Virus record (IMG/VR): IMGVR_UViG_2671181050_000002
Source: a virus
Lineage: Duplodnaviria > Heunggongvirae > Uroviricota > Caudoviricetes
Reading direction: 5' to 3' (one strand)
DNA: 12,542 nucleotides
The position numbers were made by a program, and so were the translations under genes. Positions 1 to 12,542 of the stretch are shown here, piece after piece (positions within the stretch are counted from its first letter, which is position 1; every line of letters starts with the position of its first letter). The notes beneath the pieces are model-generated. The model had not been told where the DNA came from and searched no databases. It saw only the letters and a list, made by a program, of their open reading frames with translations.

Positions 1-101
1 AGGCGGAATATATGCGTCACCTTCACCAATAAATTCATTAGTTCCGGCCAGCAGATTATAAATTTTTATGGTCCGTGCTTGTTCACTCATTCTGAATGCC
101 A
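1..101 (-). CDS. tfa: Tail fibre assembly protein Tfa, 5' end only (gene continues beyond window start)
   Basis: Minus-strand translation from ATG at 101-99 gives [34 protein letters not shown], matching the lambda Tfa N-terminus as recalled; the ATG overlaps the upstream stop (TAATG). Confidence 0.8.
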
Positions 102-2198
102 TTATGCAAGCCTCACAATATAGTTAAATGCGATGTTTTTGACGGTGTTTTCCGCGTTACCCGCAGCGTTAACGGTGATGGTGTGTCCATGTGAGCCAAT
201 CGCAACGGAGTGCGTATGAGCACCAATACCGACAGTATGTGCATGTGCGCCTGCGCTTGCAGCAGTGCCGGACAGCGAGTGGGTATGAGCACCATCTGAT
301 GATGTCTTCCCTGCATTACGAGTCTGGCCACTACCGCTTGTTGTGCTCATAATCCCCGCGCTTGGATTTGAAATCGCGGTATAACCATTAGGGAAAATGC
401 TCGTGTTCGTGCCACCAAATGCACCGGAACTCTTGTGTTGGTGCGCGCCGGCACTATTTGCGGTCCCGCTAATACTATGGGTATGCGCCCCGGTGTTATT
501 CGTGGATTTGGTTCCGTAATCAAACGACGATGTGGTTTTCGTCCCCAAATCCGTACTGGATGCGCTGGCGCTGTGGGTGTGCGATTTAATGCCGTCCTGT
601 TCCTGAGACAATACGGCGCGACCACTGGCAGGTTTGCCCTTAATCGTCCAGCCACGCATATCAGGGATCACGCCTGACGGATAAGCGGCTGCAAGTTTCG
701 GGTATGCAGATTTGTCAAAAGTCTGCCCCTGCATCAGGGCATAACCAGACGGAACGGTATCTGATGGCCACGGGATTGGTGCGCCGACTGGGTAGCTTTC
801 TGGTGGAAGATTTTTCGAGGTATAAACTTCTGCCCAGTCTTCCTCAAAACCATAGCCATCTCTTGAGGAACGGTAGAACAGACCTCCATTTCTGTAATGT
901 GCCTTCACCCCCTTCACCACCTTCGGCGTGTCCCAGCGCGCCAGCACCTGATATTCCCCGCTGTCTGCGGTGACTTCGGCAGTCAGGTGCTGCACCGCTG
1001 GCGGCGTGACATCATTCACCGTGCCGCTCTGGTCGCCGTCAAAGTGCGCCCCGTTATCCACGATGGCTTCTTTTTCCGGTACATGCTGCACGGCAGTGAT
1101 GGCATACGTGCCGTCATCGTTCTCACGGATACTCACACAGCGGAACAGGCGCTGACGCAACGTCGGCAACTTCAGCCCCCACACACTGTATTCTGCAACG
1201 CCGTCAGGAACCCGGTTCACTTTCACCTTAAGTCCGTCGGTGACGGACTGAACCTCCACGCTGACCGGACTCCCCTGCCCGTCAACCAGGCTTATCAGCG
1301 TGGTGCCGGAAGATGGCAGCGTGATTTCACGGTCGAGCGTCAGCGTCCGGGTCTGGCTGTTCACCGCCAGCACGCGACCACCGGTGCTGATACCGGCATA
1401 GTCATCATCGCAGATTTCAATGACATCGCCCGGTACATGGCGAAGCCCTTCAGCACCCACGCTGAAATCCACGGTCTGCGTCTCCAGCAGTTCCGTTTTA
1501 ATCAGCCACAGCCCGGCGCGGTGTGCCTGCCCCCGGCTGGTACAGCCAAAGGCATCCATCTTCGTGACATTACGACCGTAACGGGCAATGGCCTGCGTAT
1601 CTTCAACAAGCTCTGTCGCCGTCTCCCAGCCGTTGTTCGGGTCAATCCAGTTCACCTCAACGGCATTATGGCGGTCCTTCAGGGCGCTGAAGCTGTAGCG
1701 GAACGGCGCGCCATCATCCGGCATCACCACATTACTGCGGTTATAGGTCCACACCTTATCTGATGGTCGGTCCTGCACGAACGTCAGCGTCTGCCCGTTC
1801 CATACCGGCATACAGCGCATCGCCGAGCAGAAATCACTGAGCACATCCCACGCCTTACGCTGTGTGGTCAGCCAGGCATTACAGGTGATGCGCGGCTCCG
1901 TGCCGCCAAAACCATTCGGTACCAACTGGTCGCAGTACTGGCCGATGACATACAGCGTCCATTTATCCACATCTGCTGCACCAAGACGTTTCCCCATGCC
2001 GTAGCGCGGATGGGTCAGCATATCCCACAGACACCAGGCCATGTTGTTGCTGTATGCTGGCTTAAACGTTCCATCCCAGATACCGCTGTATTGCCGCGTC
2101 TGCGGGTTATAGTTCGACGGCACCTGCAGAATGCGCCCGCGCAGATGATAATTACGGCTCACCTGCTGGCTGCCGAACTGCTCCGAGTCCACCTGCAC
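102..2198 (-). pseudogene. Chimeric tail-fibre remnant: central part of host-specificity protein J (ORF aa 1-431) fused in frame to the C-terminal ~265 aa of side tail fibre Stf (GAHTHS His-box repeats, ends [11 protein letters not shown])
   Basis: 698-aa ORF from the six-frame track. Its N-terminal part ([41 protein letters not shown] ... [12 protein letters not shown]) matches the middle of lambda J as recalled; after residue ~431 it switches to Stf-like C-terminal sequence. The first codon is GTG in the middle of J sequence with no ribosome-binding site, and the upstream A fragment is in another frame. Confidence 0.7.
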
Positions 2199-3088
2199 GC
2201 CGACCAGTGCCGTGTTCGGGTATCCCCTTTCGTCTTCATCCAGTCTTTGACAATCTGCACCCAGGTGGTGAACGGGCTGTACGCCGTCCAGATGTGAAAG
2301 GTCACACTGTCCGGCGGCTCAATCTCTTCACCGGATGACGAAAACCAGAGAATGCCATCACGGGTCCAGATCCCGGTCTTTTCGCAGATATAACGGGCAT
2401 CAGTAAAGTCCAGCTCCTGCTGGCGGATGACGCAGGCATTATGCTCGCAGAGATAAAACACGCTGGAGGGGTCATCCGGCGTCCATTTGAGGCCAAACGG
2501 CGTCTCTTTGTCGCCAAATTTAAGATACTGCTCCTCCCCGCAGTGCGGGCAGGCAACATGAAAACGCATAAAATGCGGGGATTCACTGGCTGCACGCTCA
2601 ATCTGGCAGGTGCCTCTCACTTTGGGCGTGGAGCCACGGATGGACTTTGGCCAGACCGAGCCTTCAATACGCTTGTCACCCAGGAACGTCGGAGAGCCTT
2701 CCTGTTCAATATCATCATCAAAAGCAGCAAGTTCATCATAACCCGCCACATCCACCGACTTTTCACGGTAGTTTTTTGCCGCTTTACCGCCCAGGCACCA
2801 GAAGCCACGCCCATTAGTGAAACGCTTCATGGTGAGCGTGTTATCCCGGTGCTTTTTGCCATACCACGGGGCCAGCGCCAGCAGCGACGGAATATCACGA
2901 ATAGTCGGCTCAACGTGGGTTTTCATAAAGTTCTCGGCATCACCATCCGTCGGCAACCAGATAAGGGTGTTGCGCTGCTTATGCTCTATGAAGTAGGCAT
3001 AAACACCCAGCAGCATTTTGGAATAACCAACACGGGCAGACTTCACCACATTCACCTCGCGGATGTAGTCACTGCCCATCGCATTCAT
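2159..3088 (-). pseudogene. A: Terminase large subunit (gpA) internal fragment, lacking the N-terminal ~65 aa and the entire C-terminal half
   Basis: Translation (…)[67 protein letters not shown] ... [15 protein letters not shown] matches lambda gpA as recalled, then 19 out-of-frame codons derived from J sequence before the stop at 2159. An internal ATG at 3088 is the only possible start. Confidence 0.8.
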
Positions 3089-3201
3089 GATGGCCCGCTG
3101 CCACCTCCGGAGACGCAAGGGAGTCCCTGAGACTGCCAGCGTTCAATCGTTCGCGGATCCACGTTGAAAATTTCGGCAAGTTTCTTTTTATTAACCTTCA
3201 T
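3085..3201 (-). pseudogene. Terminase small subunit (Nu1-like) N-terminal stub, 38 codons
   Basis: ATG at 3201 gives [38 protein letters not shown], resembling the Nu1 N-terminal HTH region (lambda MEVNKKQLADIFGASIRTIQNWQEQGMP...). The reading frame runs into gpA-derived sequence at about 3097-3100 and stops at 3085. Confidence 0.6.
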
Positions 3202-3225
3202 GAAACAGTCTCACAACAAACACAG

Positions 3226-3337
3226 GGTCCGACATGAAAGTGCCCGAAAATGACTTTTTTAGGCGTTTTCATGTCGGACCTTTTACGGATTCGATATTAG
3301 AAAAAACAAATAGTTATGTTCGAGAAGTACCGACATG
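3226..3337 (-). other. cosB-like region: three R-site-like repeats CATGTCGG(A/T)AC at 3226-3236, 3270-3280 (inverted) and 3327-3337
   Basis: The three 11-mers were read directly; they lie between the cosN-like site and the Nu1 start in the same R3/R2(inverted)/R1 arrangement as lambda cosB, but with a different repeat sequence. Confidence 0.55.
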
Positions 3338-3344
3338 ATTTTCC

Positions 3345-3420
3345 CCGGAAAATTTTCATAAATAGCGAAAACCCGCGCGCCTTCCGCCCCGTAACCTGTC
3401 GGATCGCCGGAAAGGACCCG
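3345..3420 (-). other. cosN/cosQ-like terminase nicking region
   Basis: Minus strand reads CCGACAGGTTACG GGGCGGAAGGCG CGCGGGTTTTCGCTATTTATGAAAATTTTCCGG. The flanks match the lambda cos sequence as recalled (…ACAGGTTACG GGGCGGCGACCT CGCGGGTTTTCGCTATTTATGAAAATTTTCCGG), but the central 6 nt of the 12-nt cohesive-end core (3378-3389) differ. Confidence 0.65.
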
Positions 3421-3588
3421 CAAAATGATAATAATTATCATCTACATGTCACAACGTGCATCTACGCCATCAAACCACGTCAAATAATCAATTATGACGC
3501 AGGTATCGTATTAATTGATCTGCATCAACTTAACGTAAAAACAACTTCAGACAATACAAATCAGCGACACTGAATACGGGGCAACCTC

Positions 3589-3822
3589 ATGTCAACGAAG
3601 AACAGAACCCGCAGAACAACAACCCGCAACATCCGCTTTCCTAACCAAATGATTGAACAAATTAACATCGCTCTTGAGCAAAAAGGGTCCGGGAATTTCT
3701 CAGCCTGGGTCATTGAAGCCTGCCGCCGGAGACTGTGCTCAGAAAAAAGAGTTTCGCCTGAAGCAAACAAAGAAAAGAGTGACATTACTGAATTGCTCAG
3801 AAAACAGGTTAGACCAGATTGA
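3589..3822 (+). CDS. Small basic protein (77 aa) with a ribbon-helix-helix-like N-terminal segment, possibly the DUF3950/YlcI-YnfO family
   Basis: ORF MSTKNRTRRTTTRNIRFPNQMIEQINIALEQKGSGNFSAWVIEACRRRL... has a beta-strand / helix / helix pattern typical of Arc/CopG-type RHH proteins. The corresponding DNA is conserved in the lambda right arm next to cos (recalled). Family name is from memory. Confidence 0.5.
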   Translation: MSTKNRTRRTTTRNIRFPNQMIEQINIALEQKGSGNFSAWVIEACRRRLCSEKRVSPEANKEKSDITELLRKQVRPD

Positions 3823-3879
3823 AGCAATTTAGATAATCGTGCAGACTACGCCCCCTCATATCACATGGAAGGTACTACA

Positions 3880-4290
3880 ATGGCTCAGGTTGCCATTTTT
3901 AAACAAATATTCGATAAAGTGCGAAATAATTTAAACTATCACTGGTTTTATTCTGAACTAAAACGTCACAATGTCTCACATTACATTTACTATTTAGCCA
4001 CAGAGAATATTCATCTTGTTCTTGAAAACGATAATACGGTTTTAATAAAAGGACAGGGTAAGGTTGTAAATGTAAGATTTTCAAAAAATAAATGCCTTAT
4101 AGAAGCCACCTTAAAAGGATTCAAATCAGGAGAGTTATCATTTTACGAATACAGGAAAAATCTTGCTACAGCAGGGGTTTTCAGATGGATTACAAATATC
4201 CACGAAAACAAAAGGTATTACTATACCTTTGATAATTCATTACTCTTTACTGAGAACATTCAGAACACTACACAAATATTTCCGCACTAA
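3880..4290 (+). CDS. AT-rich hypothetical protein (136 aa from MAQVAIF), conserved lambda right-arm ORF
   Basis: ORF intact; a recalled lambda right-arm ORF translates to a related protein (about 75 percent identity by eye) with the reading frame preserved, which suggests a real gene. Followed by hairpin GTCCGGTT-N13-AACCGGAC at 4301-4329. Confidence 0.5.
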
Positions 4291-4878
4291 ATCATAACGT
4301 CCGGTTTCTTCCGTGCCAGAACCGGACTCGCTGGCATGATGAAATATGTGTACCCGGTAACCCCGGTGTGCATCGTTTTTGATTATTCCCGCACACTCGC
4401 GCAGAAGGAGTTCCCCGTCGGGCTACGGTCTCTGTTAATACGGGAATACGGCGACGATACAGCGCATGATGTGTCAGGCTTGAATGCCTTTATCCTTTAA
4501 AAGGGATATCAGTTAAGTTATCCCGTGTAGGGTATAAGCCATTATCAAAGCCACTCTGTAGGGAATGGCTTTTGTGATGGCATCACTTACTCTTTACGCT
4601 GCTATCCCACTCATCCCGGAATTTTGATGGGTTATTGAAACCTTCTGCTGACATAACAACTCCTTCAATGTTTGGCTGAAATTAGGATGTCTTTCCATCA
4701 GTCCGCCACCACAAAGAATCTTTTTTGCCATAAGGCAGGAGGTTCATCTTTCAGTGGCTGCCGGTGTTATTTCCCCACTTACTGGCTTGGGTTGTTTCGT
4801 GGTACTGCCGTTAACTGGTGGCCCAGAATAAATTCCGGTTTCATTATCAAGCCCACCCGTAAATGGGCTTTGTAATGG

Positions 4879-5148
4879 CTACTTCACTTTTGCTTTTGCT
4901 TTTGCTTCCGCTCGCTTACGCCGGCGCTCTTCTTTCCTCTCGGCTTTTGCCATGTCCATGAATGCCTGCATGATCGAGTTCCGCATCATGTAGCTAACAA
5001 AGTGATGATTGACACAGCCGTTGAGGCGCAGCTGCTCGCCAAACTCATCCACCGAGGCCAATGCTTCCATCATGCCCTTCTCGCCTTTCATGAACTCTGA
5101 GAAGTCGCGCCCCGCTCTGGAGGCGCATTCAATGACACGATCACTCAT
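4879..5148 (-). CDS. Hypothetical protein (89 aa) with a Lys/Arg-rich C-terminal tail
   Basis: ORF MSDRVIECASRAGRDFSEF...KAERKEERRRKRAEAKAKAKVK; its ATG overlaps the stop of the upstream KilA-N ORF (ATGA), suggesting translational coupling. No homolog recognised. Confidence 0.4.
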   Translation of the reverse strand: MSDRVIECASRAGRDFSEFMKGEKGMMEALASVDEFGEQLRLNGCVNHHFVSYMMRNSIMQAFMDMAKAERKEERRRKRAEAKAKAKVK

Positions 5149-5641
5149 CCCGGAAGCCCGGGGATCGTAATCTGCAGCTGGTTAGCCAGGGAGTTAATCT
5201 CAGCGACCAACACTGGCTTCGTATAGCGCCATGCTGCCAGCCCTTGTCCGCAGAAGCTCGCCATGTCTTTCTTCTGGTCAAACTCATGACATTTCATGTT
5301 GAGCTGCGCACTTAAGCTGTTGCGATGCTGAAGTTCTCCGGTGAAGTAGTCATCGAGGACTTTATAGGCCGCGTACTTGAACCCGGGGTTTAACCAAGCC
5401 GCATAATCGTAAGCAACAAACTTCCCGCCATATGTTCCACCGTGTACACCGCGCTCAGTAAAAACCACAGATTCGTGGTTTTTCTCCAGCTCGGCTAAGA
5501 ACTCTTTGGTCTGCTTGTTTCGCAGGTAGTGGTAAGGCGATTCAGATTCACTTTTACCACTGGCTTTCCACATACAGTGAGGCAGATCATGCCATCTTCA
5601 CCGATACGAATTGGTTGATTGAAGAGGGTTAATGATTTCAT
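5145..5641 (-). pseudogene. KilA-N domain protein with an apparent -1 frameshift near 5571-5576; intact downstream ORF is 5145..5573 (142 aa)
   Basis: The 142-aa ORF contains KilA-N/APSES-like motifs (SPYHYLRNKQTKEFLAELEK ... GGTYGGKFVAYDYAAWLNPGF). The expected N-terminal strand MKSLTLFNQPIRIGEDGMICLT is encoded from ATG 5641 in a different frame and stops after 47 codons. Confidence 0.5.
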
Positions 5642-7583: not shown

Positions 7584-8666
7584 ATGAAAAAATTAACAGT
7601 GGCAATTTCTGCTGTAGCTGCATCAGTACTGATGGCGATGTCTGCTCAGGCAGCTGAAATTTATAATAAAGACAGTAACAAGCTGGATCTGTACGGGAAA
7701 GTTAATGCTAAGCACTACTTCTCCTCTAATGATGCAGATGATGGTGATACTACTTATGCCCGTCTTGGCTTCAAAGGTGAAACCCAAATCAACGATCAAC
7801 TGACTGGTTTCGGTCAGTGGGAATATGAATTCAAAGGCAACCGCGCTGAATCTCAAGGTTCCTCCAAAGATAAAACCCGTCTTGCCTTCGCTGGCCTGAA
7901 ATTCGGTGACTACGGCTCCATCGATTACGGCCGTAACTACGGTGTAGCATACGACATCGGTGCATGGACCGACGTTCTGCCAGAATTCGGTGGCGATACC
8001 TGGACCCAAACAGATGTATTCATGACTGGTCGCACCACAGGTGTTGCAACTTATCGTAACAACGACTTCTTTGGTCTGGTTGATGGCCTGAACTTTGCAG
8101 CTCAGTATCAGGGCAAAAATGACCGAAATGAAGTAACTGAAGCTAATGGCGATGGTTTCGGTTTCTCAACTACTTATGAGTATGAAGGATTCGGCGTGGG
8201 TGCAACCTATGCTAAATCTGATCGCACTAATAATCAGGTTATCTACGGTAACAACGGTCTGAATGCTTCTGGTCAAAATGCTGAAGTATGGGCAGCTGGT
8301 CTGAAATATGATGCGAACAACATCTATCTGGCCACCACCTATTCTGAAACCCAGAACATGACTGTTTTTGGTAATAACCATATTGCCAACAAAGCACAAA
8401 ACTTCGAAGCTGTTGCACAATATCAGTTCGACTTCGGCCTGCGTCCATCCGTTGCTTACCTGCATTCTAAAGGAAAAGACTTGGGTGTTTGGGGTGATCA
8501 GGACCTGGTTGAATATGTTGATGTAGGTGCAACCTATTACTTCAACAAAAATATGTCCACTTTTGTTGACTACAAAATCAACCTGATTGATAAGAGCGAT
8601 TTCACGAAAGCATCTGGCGTTGCTACCGATGATATCGTTGCTGTAGGTATGGTTTACCAGTTCTAA
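7584..8666 (+). CDS. nmpC: Outer-membrane porin, NmpC/OmpD-like (OmpC/OmpF/PhoE family), apparently intact
   Basis: 360 aa; signal peptide [23 protein letters not shown] then AEIYNKD...; C-terminal VGMVYQF typical of general porins; closely matches DLP12 NmpC as recalled. Confidence 0.85.
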
Positions 8667-11579: not shown

Positions 11580-11648
11580 GCAGAACACATCCGGTACATG
11601 GTTGAAACCATTGCTCACCACCAGGTTGATATTGATTCAGAGGTATAA
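11580..11648 (+). pseudogene. gam: gam 3' stub (last 22 codons and stop of the Gam inhibitor of RecBCD)
   Basis: In-frame [25 protein letters not shown] ends 5 nt before the bet ATG, matching the Gam C-terminus as recalled; upstream the frame is closed by TAG at 11565-11567 and no gam N-terminus is present. Confidence 0.6.
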
Positions 11649-11653
11649 AACGG

Positions 11654-12439
11654 ATGAGTACAGCACTCGCAACGCTGGCAGGGAAGCTGGCTGAACGTGT
11701 CGGCATGGATTCTGTCGACCCACAGGAACTGATCACCACTCTTCGCCAGACGGCATTTAAAGGCGATGCCAGCGATGCGCAGTTCATCGCATTGTTGATC
11801 GTCGCCAACCAGTACGGCCTTAATCCGTGGACGAAAGAAATTTACGCCTTCCCTGACAAGCAGAACGGCATCGTTCCGGTGGTGGGCGTTGATGGCTGGT
11901 CCCGTATCATCAATGAAAACCAGCAGTTTGATGGCATGGACTTTGAGCAGGACAATGAATCCTGCACATGCCGGATTTACCGCAAGGACCGTAATCATCC
12001 GATCTGCGTTACCGAGTGGATGGATGAATGCCGCCGCGAACCATTCAAAACCCGCGAAGGCAGAGAAATCACGGGGCCGTGGCAGTCGCATCCCAAACGG
12101 ATGTTACGTCATAAAGCCATGATTCAGTGTGCCCGTCTGGCCTTCGGATTTGCTGGTATCTATGACAAGGATGAAGCCGAGCGCATTGTCGAAAATACTG
12201 CATACACTGCAGAACGTCAGCCAGAACGCGACATCACTCCGGTTAACGATGAAACCATGCAGGAGATTAACACTCTGCTGATCGCCCTGGATAAAACATG
12301 GGATGACGACTTATTGCCGCTCTGTTCCCAGATATTTCGCCGCGACATTCGCGCATCGTCAGAACTGACACAGGCCGAAGCAGTGAAAGCTCTTGGATTC
12401 CTGAAACAGAAAGCCACTGAGCAGAAGGTGGCAGCATGA
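11654..12439 (+). CDS. bet: Single-strand annealing protein Bet (Red beta)
   Basis: 261 aa [84 protein letters not shown]..., essentially the lambda Bet sequence as recalled. Confidence 0.9.
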
Positions 12440-12542
12440 CACCGGACATTATCCTGCAGCGTACCGGGATCGACGTGAGAGCTGTCGAACAGGGGGATGA
12501 TGCGTGGCACAAATTACGGCTCGGCGTCATCACCGCTTCAGA
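12436..12542 (+). CDS. exo: Lambda exonuclease Exo (Red alpha), 5' end only (continues beyond window end)
   Basis: ATG at 12436 overlaps the bet stop (ATGA); translation [36 protein letters not shown] matches the lambda Exo N-terminus as recalled. Confidence 0.85.

Follow-up and report, generated by a model that had tools for sequence, protein, structure and literature searches.

The closest textbook analogue of the locus described here is the nohD-aaaD-tfaD segment of the DLP12 prophage in E. coli K-12 MG1655 (NC_000913.3, 580,834-582,097). DLP12 carries lambdoid late genes (rusA-ylcG-quuD-porin-essD-rrrD-rzpD ... ylcI-cos) and, after them, a Nu1 homologue; its truncated gpA pseudogene is fused directly to tail-fibre sequence, and the head and tail genes are all deleted. 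Other collapses of the same gene set are found in two further E. coli prophages. In LWY6, a partial Nu1 is joined to a partial L, while the TUM9757 prophage has lost all packaging genes and kept a truncated E through J, lom and stf, with J and stf intact. For E. coli, illegitimate recombination has been described as akin to microhomology-mediated end joining and as beginning with the resection of a double-strand break (PMC11372144). In the Spi- assay, which captures aberrant excision of lambda, such events leave zero to few shared bases and involve neither an IS nor site-specific recombination (PMC11372144, PMC3375238).

We analyzed a stretch of 12,542 nucleotides (hereafter the window), deposited as IMG/VR record IMGVR_UViG_2671181050_000002, in which lambda Nu1, A and J (NC_001416) are the parental gene types and none of the three is full length. 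The window shares the DLP12 arrangement, including the late gene order, the truncated gpA gene fused to tail sequence and the loss of head genes, and is 92-98% identical to it over much of the late region. In DLP12, however, Nu1 (nohD) is intact, only lambda A nt 711-1018 remains, joined to tfa, and the prophage lies beside appY-ompT. In the window Nu1 is reduced to 34 residues, a larger A piece (nt 879-1759) is joined to the middle of J, and the location is the lambda attachment site by bio. The two collapses represent independent events. The LWY6 and TUM9757 prophages are 95-100% identical to the window, and TUM9757 occupies the same site by ybhB-bioA with an stf/tfa end 100% identical to window positions 1-907, yet neither prophage has either of the packaging-gene joints described below. 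The joints resemble the Spi- products in sharing no more than a few bases; the Spi- literature concerns events at prophage ends that yield transducing phage, whereas those in the window are internal and their pathway is read from scars only.

Deletion joints in the packaging genes

The window was aligned with lambda (L001, NC_001416), with an intact E. coli prophage carrying the same Nu1 allele (L002) and with a second prophage (L003). These references are relatives and not the true parents, and lambda and the two prophages agree at every joint. An internal fragment of gpA, the large terminase subunit, occupies positions 2223-3100 on the minus strand and corresponds to lambda nt 879-1756 (to 1759 with a shared triplet), or residues 57-350 of 641. 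Window positions 2211-3100 matched lambda A nt 1768-879 at 98.4% identity (E = 0). The protein encoded by the fragment is 100% identical to lambda gpA 57-350, and all 14 of its nucleotide differences from lambda are synonymous. The ATPase domain is retained (GpA_ATPase positions 19-237 of 247, E = 5.5e-46), with the Walker A motif KSARVGYS and the DE motif present. The C-terminal endonuclease domain of gpA cuts cos; the fragment covered only GpA_nuclease positions 2-34 of 294, under the curated cut-off, in comparison to 2-286 for lambda gpA. The N-terminal segment is likewise missing, with the fragment beginning at residue 57 and its first usable ATG being Met61. About the first 50 residues of gpA bind Nu1 and the C-terminus binds the portal, and both are needed for terminase assembly.

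The open reading frame reported by the gene caller (2159-3088, minus strand) encodes 309 aa, comprising gpA Met61-Thr350 and an out-of-frame tail of 19 aa from J DNA; the A frame stops at 2159-2161, past the joint with J. This exact ORF was found on 37 contigs under the name 'phage terminase large subunit family protein [Escherichia coli]'. The other members of its 90% protein cluster are partial proteins at contig ends that continue with normal gpA sequence beyond residue 350. An antisense ORF of 229 aa at 2441-3130 on the plus strand was rejected as a gene, being equally open in lambda's own A and thus a by-product of the A sequence. Scanning positions 1900-3900 for promoters and terminators gave hits at chance level.

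The first-pass annotation had placed the end of the gpA fragment at 2220-2222, joined to mid-J at a shared TAC. Alignment bore this out, as J identity runs through 2222 and A identity begins at 2220, so that exactly 3 bp are shared (GTA on the plus strand, TAC on the minus strand). Without any inserted base, gpA codon 350 is connected out of frame to J codon 212. In lambda coordinates 14,381 bp are missing (A nt 1757/1760 to J nt 16138/16141). The gpA nuclease half and all head genes are indeed lost, as that annotation stated, but the deletion also takes tail genes Z to I together with J codons 1-211, which it had left out. Over the 12 nt at 2211-2222, nine positions agree with both parents. 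For a random joint, P is 0.05 for the 3 bp and, as a post hoc figure, about 0.01 for the 9/12 match.

The second joint, between Nu1 and A, is blunt (0 bp shared) and also out of frame. Nu1 had been thought to switch to gpA out of frame at about 3097-3100, and a three-way alignment and BLAST fixed the position at 3100|3101. The missing 587 bp correspond to L002 3891-4477, covering Nu1 codon 34 through the equivalent of gpA codon 56.

What remains of Nu1, the small terminase subunit, is a 5' stub at 3101-3201 on the minus strand, with its ATG at 3201-3199. Its 101 nt comprise 33 codons and 2 nt, and codon 34 still reads Gly, so that 34 native residues are kept. These are identical to residues 1-34 of the 181-aa L002 Nu1 and matched Pfam Phage_Nu1 at positions 1-36 of 164 (E = 3e-13). 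The stub ORF (3085-3201, minus strand) encodes 38 aa, of which the last four codons are frameshifted (SGPS), followed by TGA at 3087-3085; its minus-strand sequence is GGCCATCATGAATGCG. This TGA shares bases with the first ATG in the frame of the gpA fragment (ATGA, 3088-3085). Full-length Nu1 of about 181 aa consists of a winged-helix DNA-binding domain, an oligomerisation region and a gpA-binding C-terminus, and the C-terminal four fifths of it are gone from the window. The description of the stub as the first ~34 codons of Nu1 with its DNA-binding helix-turn-helix is correct for the number of residues and for the helix-turn-helix itself. The whole folded DNA-binding domain is not covered, as the Nu1 DNA-binding constructs with solved structures range from residues 1-54 to 1-68 and thus cover at least 54 residues. 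Lambda nu1 gave no BLAST-level DNA match to the stub, and the stub together with the cos region represents another allele; window positions 3101-4582 are colinear with the Nu1 5' end and cos region of L002 at 98.3% identity.

The J/Stf fusion and the retained cos region

On the other side of the A/J joint, an internal fragment of the tail-tip protein gene J lies at 905-2222 on the minus strand (lambda nt 16138-17455, codons 212-650 of 1132). It is 94.9% identical to lambda J and 96.1% identical to L003, while a further sequence, L011, matches it at 97.3%; Pfam detected Phage-tail_3 and Ig_J. Full-length J combines an N-terminal part belonging to the tip complex with a C-terminal receptor-binding domain. 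In the window the side tail fibre Stf takes the place of the C-terminus of this 1132-aa protein, in frame, generating an ORF of 698 aa at 102-2198 (minus strand) in which the J fragment continues into the C-terminal ~260 residues of Stf, with the Pfam domains Collar and Phage_fiber. The exact 698-aa protein was present on 10 contigs. The fusion point, at 905-907, is a third deletion joint; it shares 3 bp (TCA) and lacks about 4.7-4.9 kb, which included the J C-terminus, lom and the Stf N-terminus. A fourth deletion joint lies at 11580 and shares 1 bp. Summed over the four joints of the window, microhomology amounts to 7 bp versus 2.7 expected (P = 0.04).

Beside the Nu1 stub, the cos region is retained (3229-3389, minus strand). 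It includes a stretch, 3302-3377, that aligns to the lambda left end, and it is 79% identical to lambda cos. Three copies of CCGACATGA occur in it, at 3229-3237 (plus), 3269-3277 (minus) and 3330-3338 (plus), compared with 0.12 expected. Their arrangement is like that of the Nu1-binding R sites of cosB, and by analogy to lambda cosB they may be R sites. Upstream, the Q antiterminator and the lysis genes have stayed intact. A cos-type phage satellite (PICI-like element) would combine a cos site with an integrase, a regulator and a replication module of its own and be mobilised by a helper phage; the window keeps the cos region but has lost O/P replication and immunity, and the attL/int side lies outside it.

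A lineage at the lambda attachment site

Six independent loci (L004-L009, from NCBI, ENA and JGI) carry the same 12.5 kb with all four joints at 99.77-99.93% identity. All six adjoin ybhB-bioA-bioB-bioF at the lambda attachment site; their contigs measure 45-129 kb, apart from one of 1.34 Mb. Among the carriers are the assemblies GCA_016856385.1 and GCA_008041115.1 and the genome with SPX35658.1. The first-pass annotation had proposed asking whether the junction is fixed in a lineage, and it is. Identical joints in six independent loci exclude an assembly artefact and demonstrate fixation; the scars are real and fixed in a lineage of E. coli, which has passed them on without change. No SNPs were found within 2159-3201 among seven copies, and the diversity of the lineage is 0.07-0.23%. 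Remnants of IS elements (rve_3 and HTH_Tnp_1 fragments) lie a few kb off, between the prophage end and ybhB. The locus lies at ybhB-bioA and has lost its head genes, most of the tail genes, both subunits of terminase and the immunity/replication block; six loci share this state, and we class it as a cryptic prophage remnant.

We searched 5,426 complete E. coli genomes with 80-nt queries spanning the joints. The A/J joint was absent from all of them (best coverage 63% of the query), and no complete genome spanned the Nu1/A joint (best coverage 50%). Exact-pattern scans of the GTDB species representatives for both joints, and of JGI metagenomes for the A/J joint, found no copy; the carrier lineage is simply missing from these two collections. 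E. coli genomes contain A and J in several near-identical copies, at a median of 3 places per genome. The Bet allele of the window is ubiquitous (72,617 index blocks), and a search with it led to unrelated prophages.

Origin of the deletions and possible function of the remnants

We consider the region, with a probability of roughly 0.85, to be non-functional late-operon debris (packaging and morphogenesis genes) of a lambda-family prophage that was serially deleted and vertically inherited. This is ordinary prophage decay and no new system. Both joints shift the reading frame, and as a result the locus can make neither terminase subunit and no head or tail. A prophage resident in the chromosome would have undergone at least two separate deletions here, neither of them needing homology. 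One of about 14.4 kb would have run from gpA codon 350 to J codon 212 over the shared triplet, probably through annealing or slippage at the microhomology after a break or a replication stall, a pathway with which the 9/12 match is compatible. The other, of 587 bp, would have run bluntly from Nu1 codon 34 to gpA codon 57, probably by end joining or a topoisomerase-type illegitimate event. A scar alone cannot give the molecular pathway of either deletion. Microhomology of 3 bp is by itself weakly beyond chance, and microhomology-mediated joining can describe the A/J joint but not Nu1/A.

The A/J deletion probably came first. A 369-aa protein (P0017) found on two short Logan/ENA contigs consists exactly of gpA 1-350 and the junction tail, which is what an intermediate with the A/J joint only would encode, and suggests this order. 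These contigs are at most 2.6 kb long and could be chimeric assemblies. A second candidate intermediate was rejected, namely a 581-aa protein on 44 contigs that corresponds to lambda gpA from Met61 through its C-terminus. The start codon of lambda A is GTG, so gene callers may pick Met61 on an intact gene; in addition, one of the source records resembles a fungal assembly contaminated with lambda, and the Nu1/A joint is absent from complete genomes.

Alternatively, both joints could have arisen together in one complex event, by a replication template switch (MMBIR/FoSTeS-like) or a single break repair that left Nu1, resumed in gpA at codon 57, copied 880 nt and continued into J. Such an event would account for the occurrence of both joints together in all six related loci and of neither alone in 5,426 complete genomes, as well as for a retained segment that is colinear and in the same orientation. 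We regard it as improbable, given that the 369-aa protein on two contigs implies an A/J joint without the Nu1/A deletion, that the joints are of different types, blunt in one case and with microhomology in the other, and that two further independent deletions within 12.5 kb make serial decay the norm here.

Serial deletion also leaves a terminase fragment that could have been put to use. The truncated ATPase may be expressed, judging from a coding sequence without any amino-acid change relative to lambda and an ATG that overlaps the stop codon of the stub. The scars would then have accidentally made an expression unit, in which the Nu1 ribosome-binding site and a 38-codon stub lead, TGA over ATG, into the 309-aa ATPase, downstream of Q and the lysis cassette and beside an intact cos. 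If expressed, the orphan ATPase could poison incoming lambdoid phages at the stage of terminase assembly. Alternatively, the terminase of a helper phage could cut the chromosome at the orphan cos and start to package towards bio-uvrB. We judge it very unlikely that this unit has a role in phage defence or gene transfer. The same low standing applies to a domesticated gpA ATPase, translated by coupling to the Nu1 stub (ATGA) in late transcription and benefiting the host, for example by interfering with the terminase of a superinfecting lambdoid phage. Domestication would fit an intact ORF with complete Walker motifs that reproduces lambda gpA 61-350 without an amino-acid change, its 14 nucleotide differences all being synonymous, and that is invariant in seven copies and exact on 37 contigs, whose ATG is overlapped by the stub stop codon and which has Q and the lysis genes intact upstream. 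The synonymous differences are, however, probably older than the deletion, intact A genes being up to 99.5% identical, and a diversity of 0.07-0.23% predicts about one change in 930 nt, so the invariance carries no information. Moreover, the fragment has neither the Nu1-binding N-terminus nor the portal-binding C-terminus known from lambda biology, its ORF ends in 19 aa of nonsense, and fragments at other breakpoints, such as aaaD in K-12, are treated as pseudogenes.

Deletions adjacent to IS elements that have since been lost are a still more remote explanation. The rve_3 and HTH_Tnp_1 remnants a few kb away speak for it. An adjacent deletion leaves the IS at the joint, and we found no IS or IS end at either of the two; the A, J and Nu1 sequences abut without a foreign base, and it is implausible that an IS was lost precisely from both joints. 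The first-pass annotation had favoured illegitimate recombination over IS-mediated loss. We agree, as homology to the parents extends without a break to each joint, where no IS end, target duplication or filler base is seen. Joints produced by assembly or scaffolding that merged several lambdoid prophages are barely credible. The several near-identical A and J copies per genome are a classic source of misassembly, but the same joints recur in six loci that stem from different projects and were put together by different assemblers, within contigs of 45-129 kb and one of 1.34 Mb.

Serial deletion and vertical inheritance remain our reading of the locus. It provides a base-resolved case of a prophage decaying step by step at the lambda attachment site, with four joints in 12.5 kb, no IS and fixation in a lineage, which means little beyond bookkeeping. 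Not found in 5,426 complete E. coli genomes, the joints mark this lineage specifically and are usable for tracing it. For annotation they carry a warning: the 'phage terminase large subunit family protein' of 309 aa and the 'host specificity protein J' of 698 aa are fusion artefacts of deletion.

Structure of the packaging-gene joints

BLAST and base-by-base alignments were performed against lambda, the intact prophage of E. coli YJ6 that carries the same Nu1 allele, and the prophage of strain LWY6. BLAST returned three colinear blocks within 905-4582: a J block (window 905-2222, lambda J nt 17455-16138; 94.9% identity to lambda, 96.1% to LWY6), an A block (window 2211-3100, lambda A nt 1768-879; 98.4%) and a Nu1 block (window 3101-4582), which corresponds to the 5' end of the YJ6 Nu1, cos and the upstream genes (98.3%). 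At the A/J joint, identity to J continues up to and including 2222 while identity to A begins at 2220, with GTA (TAC on the coding strand) shared by both parents and 9 of the 12 bases in 2211-2222 matching both. J restarts at codon 212 past this joint. The deletion amounts to 14,381 bp in lambda coordinates and, on the lambda gene map, took the 3' half of A, then W, B, C, Nu3, D, E, FI, FII, Z, U, V, G, T, H, M, L, K, I and J codons 1-211.

The Nu1/A joint is blunt at 3100/3101 in the base-by-base alignment, which revealed no inserted bases at either joint, and BLAST placed the loss at 587 bp. The remaining 101 nt of Nu1 encode residues 1-34 without a difference from the intact allele; SGPS and a stop codon come next. 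The gpA-derived part spans residues 57-350 (of 641) and has the same protein sequence as lambda gpA (100% identity), all 14 nucleotide differences from lambda being synonymous. It matched the Pfam ATPase domain over almost its full length (positions 19-237 of 247), with the nuclease domain represented by no more than its first ~30 positions. The A frame then enters J DNA out of frame for 19 codons, to a stop at 2159-2161. The first-pass annotation, made without database searches, had described a Nu1 cut to ~34 codons running into gpA, an A-to-J joint with a common TAC, and loss of the gpA nuclease half and all head genes; the alignments bear out each of these, the shared TAC exactly.

Recurrence, order and origin of the deletions

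Neither joint was spanned in any of 5,426 complete E. coli genomes, and exact-pattern scans did not find the two joints in GTDB species representatives or the A/J joint in JGI metagenomes. The 309-aa ORF that holds the A/J joint (2159..3088, minus strand) has residue-for-residue matches on 37 contigs, and 10 contigs have the 698-aa J::Stf ORF. The window is 99.77-99.93% identical to six loci from NCBI, ENA and JGI assemblies; five of them carry all four window joints, the sixth stopping short of the last, and 2159-3201 is invariant among the seven copies. Therefore the scars are genuine and fixed in one E. coli lineage that has no complete genome in the collections searched, which answers the earlier question of whether the junction is fixed. 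Differences within the lineage are clustered, with 17 SNPs in the J fragment of one locus only (L004, against window 1380-2010) and seven that only the window has, in its bet region (11680-12504); such clustering suggests that they came from gene conversion by other lambdoid prophages in those genomes and not from point mutation.

For the order of the deletions, hypothetical intermediate proteins were constructed and looked up by exact sequence. A 369-aa protein, composed of gpA 1-350 with the lambda-type N-terminus and the 19-aa junction tail, matched two short contigs exactly (Logan, ENA). Such a protein would imply a genome with the A/J joint that lacks the 587-bp deletion, so that the 14,381-bp deletion was probably the earlier one. 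It is possible that the two contigs represent a chimeric assembly. A construct for the opposite order, running from Met61 to the native C-terminus of lambda gpA, is also on record; we rejected it as an intermediate, as it is best accounted for by intact lambda A (GTG start) being called from a later start codon, and the Nu1/A joint is missing from complete genomes. The same sequence is also filed as 'terminase, large subunit [Trichophyton mentagrophytes]', probably lambda DNA contaminating a fungal assembly.

IS-mediated adjacent deletion would leave an IS at the joint and is ruled out, since the parental sequences abut directly at both joints. A random joint has a 3-bp overlap with P = 0.05; the additional 6/9 flanking matches at the A/J joint gave P = 0.01 in a post hoc test, and microhomology summed over the four window joints (3, 0, 3 and 1 bp) gave P = 0.04. 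Based on these figures, the A/J joint fits microhomology-assisted illegitimate recombination, in support of the first-pass preference for this route over IS-mediated loss, and the Nu1/A joint is a blunt join independent of homology. For E. coli, illegitimate recombination has been described as MMEJ-like, beginning at resected double-strand breaks (PMC11372144).

Surrounding prophage and further joints

The window holds, on its minus strand, the late half of a lambda-family prophage, in the order bet/exo, ninB, dam, ninE/ninX, rusA, ylcG, Q, porin (other strand), holin, lysozyme, Rz, a KilA-N gene, DUF1398, DUF3950, cos, the packaging-gene scar region, the J::Stf fusion and tfa. The related loci place the element end at the classical lambda attachment site, beside an AraC-type regulator, IS fragments and ybhB-bioA-bioB-bioF. 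The porin gene (7584-8666, plus strand; 360 aa, Porin_1/Porin_4, nmpC/ompC-like) is intact between Q and the holin gene; the DLP12 porin gene is likewise positioned but interrupted by IS5 in K-12. The KilA-N/ORF11CD3 gene (165 aa) is split by a 1-bp deletion at ~5574 into ORFs 5145-5573 and 5495-5641 (minus strand), in the window only, all six relatives having an extra T.

A third joint (905-907, TCA shared) removed about 4.7-4.9 kb, comprising the C-terminal part of J, lom and the N-terminal part of Stf, and puts J codons 212-650 in frame with the last ~260 residues of the side tail fibre; the resulting 698-aa ORF (102-2198, minus strand) bears the database name 'host specificity protein J'. 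At the fourth joint (11580, 1 bp shared) the ninB side abuts the middle of gam. Compared with LWY6, about 5.7 kb is lost there (ren, P, O, cII, cro, repressor, sieB, cIII and kil), which leaves the remnant devoid of an immunity or replication module.

Possible residual function and comparison with other collapsed prophages

The stop codon of the stub (TGA) and the start codon (ATG) of the 309-aa ATPase-only ORF overlap as ATGA (3088-3085), and upstream of the scar region Q, the lysis genes and the cos region are all intact; with this arrangement, it is conceivable that the fragment is expressed or that a helper phage cuts at the orphan cos. The analysis gave no support for a function, and lineage diversity was too low for a selection test. 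The fragment lacks both partner-binding ends, and its ORF ends in a nonsense tail. Within 3226-3338, in the interval from the start of Nu1 to the end of cos, CCGACATGA occurs three times (0.12 expected by chance), two copies lying inside a 25-nt inverted repeat. The arrangement is similar to that of the R sites to which Nu1 binds in lambda cosB; by this analogy, the Nu1 left next to these putative R sites has lost the ability to bind them.

DLP12 of K-12 has undergone a collapse of this kind with different breakpoints: nohD is intact, and A is reduced to lambda nt 711-1018 (aaaD) and fused to tfaD. LWY6 has partial Nu1 joined to partial L. E. coli TUM9757 occupies the same bio-side site and matches window 1-907 at 100% identity with its stf/tfa end, keeping truncated E through stf with the packaging genes gone. 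Directly beside its truncated major capsid gene lie a HEPN-domain gene and a DUF262 gene (L011, the TUM9757 locus, 753-2469), which may be defence-type cargo inserted at the site of packaging-gene loss. The window region is an ordinary cryptic-prophage scar; the decay of prophages by serial deletion is already familiar, and what is new are these particular joints.
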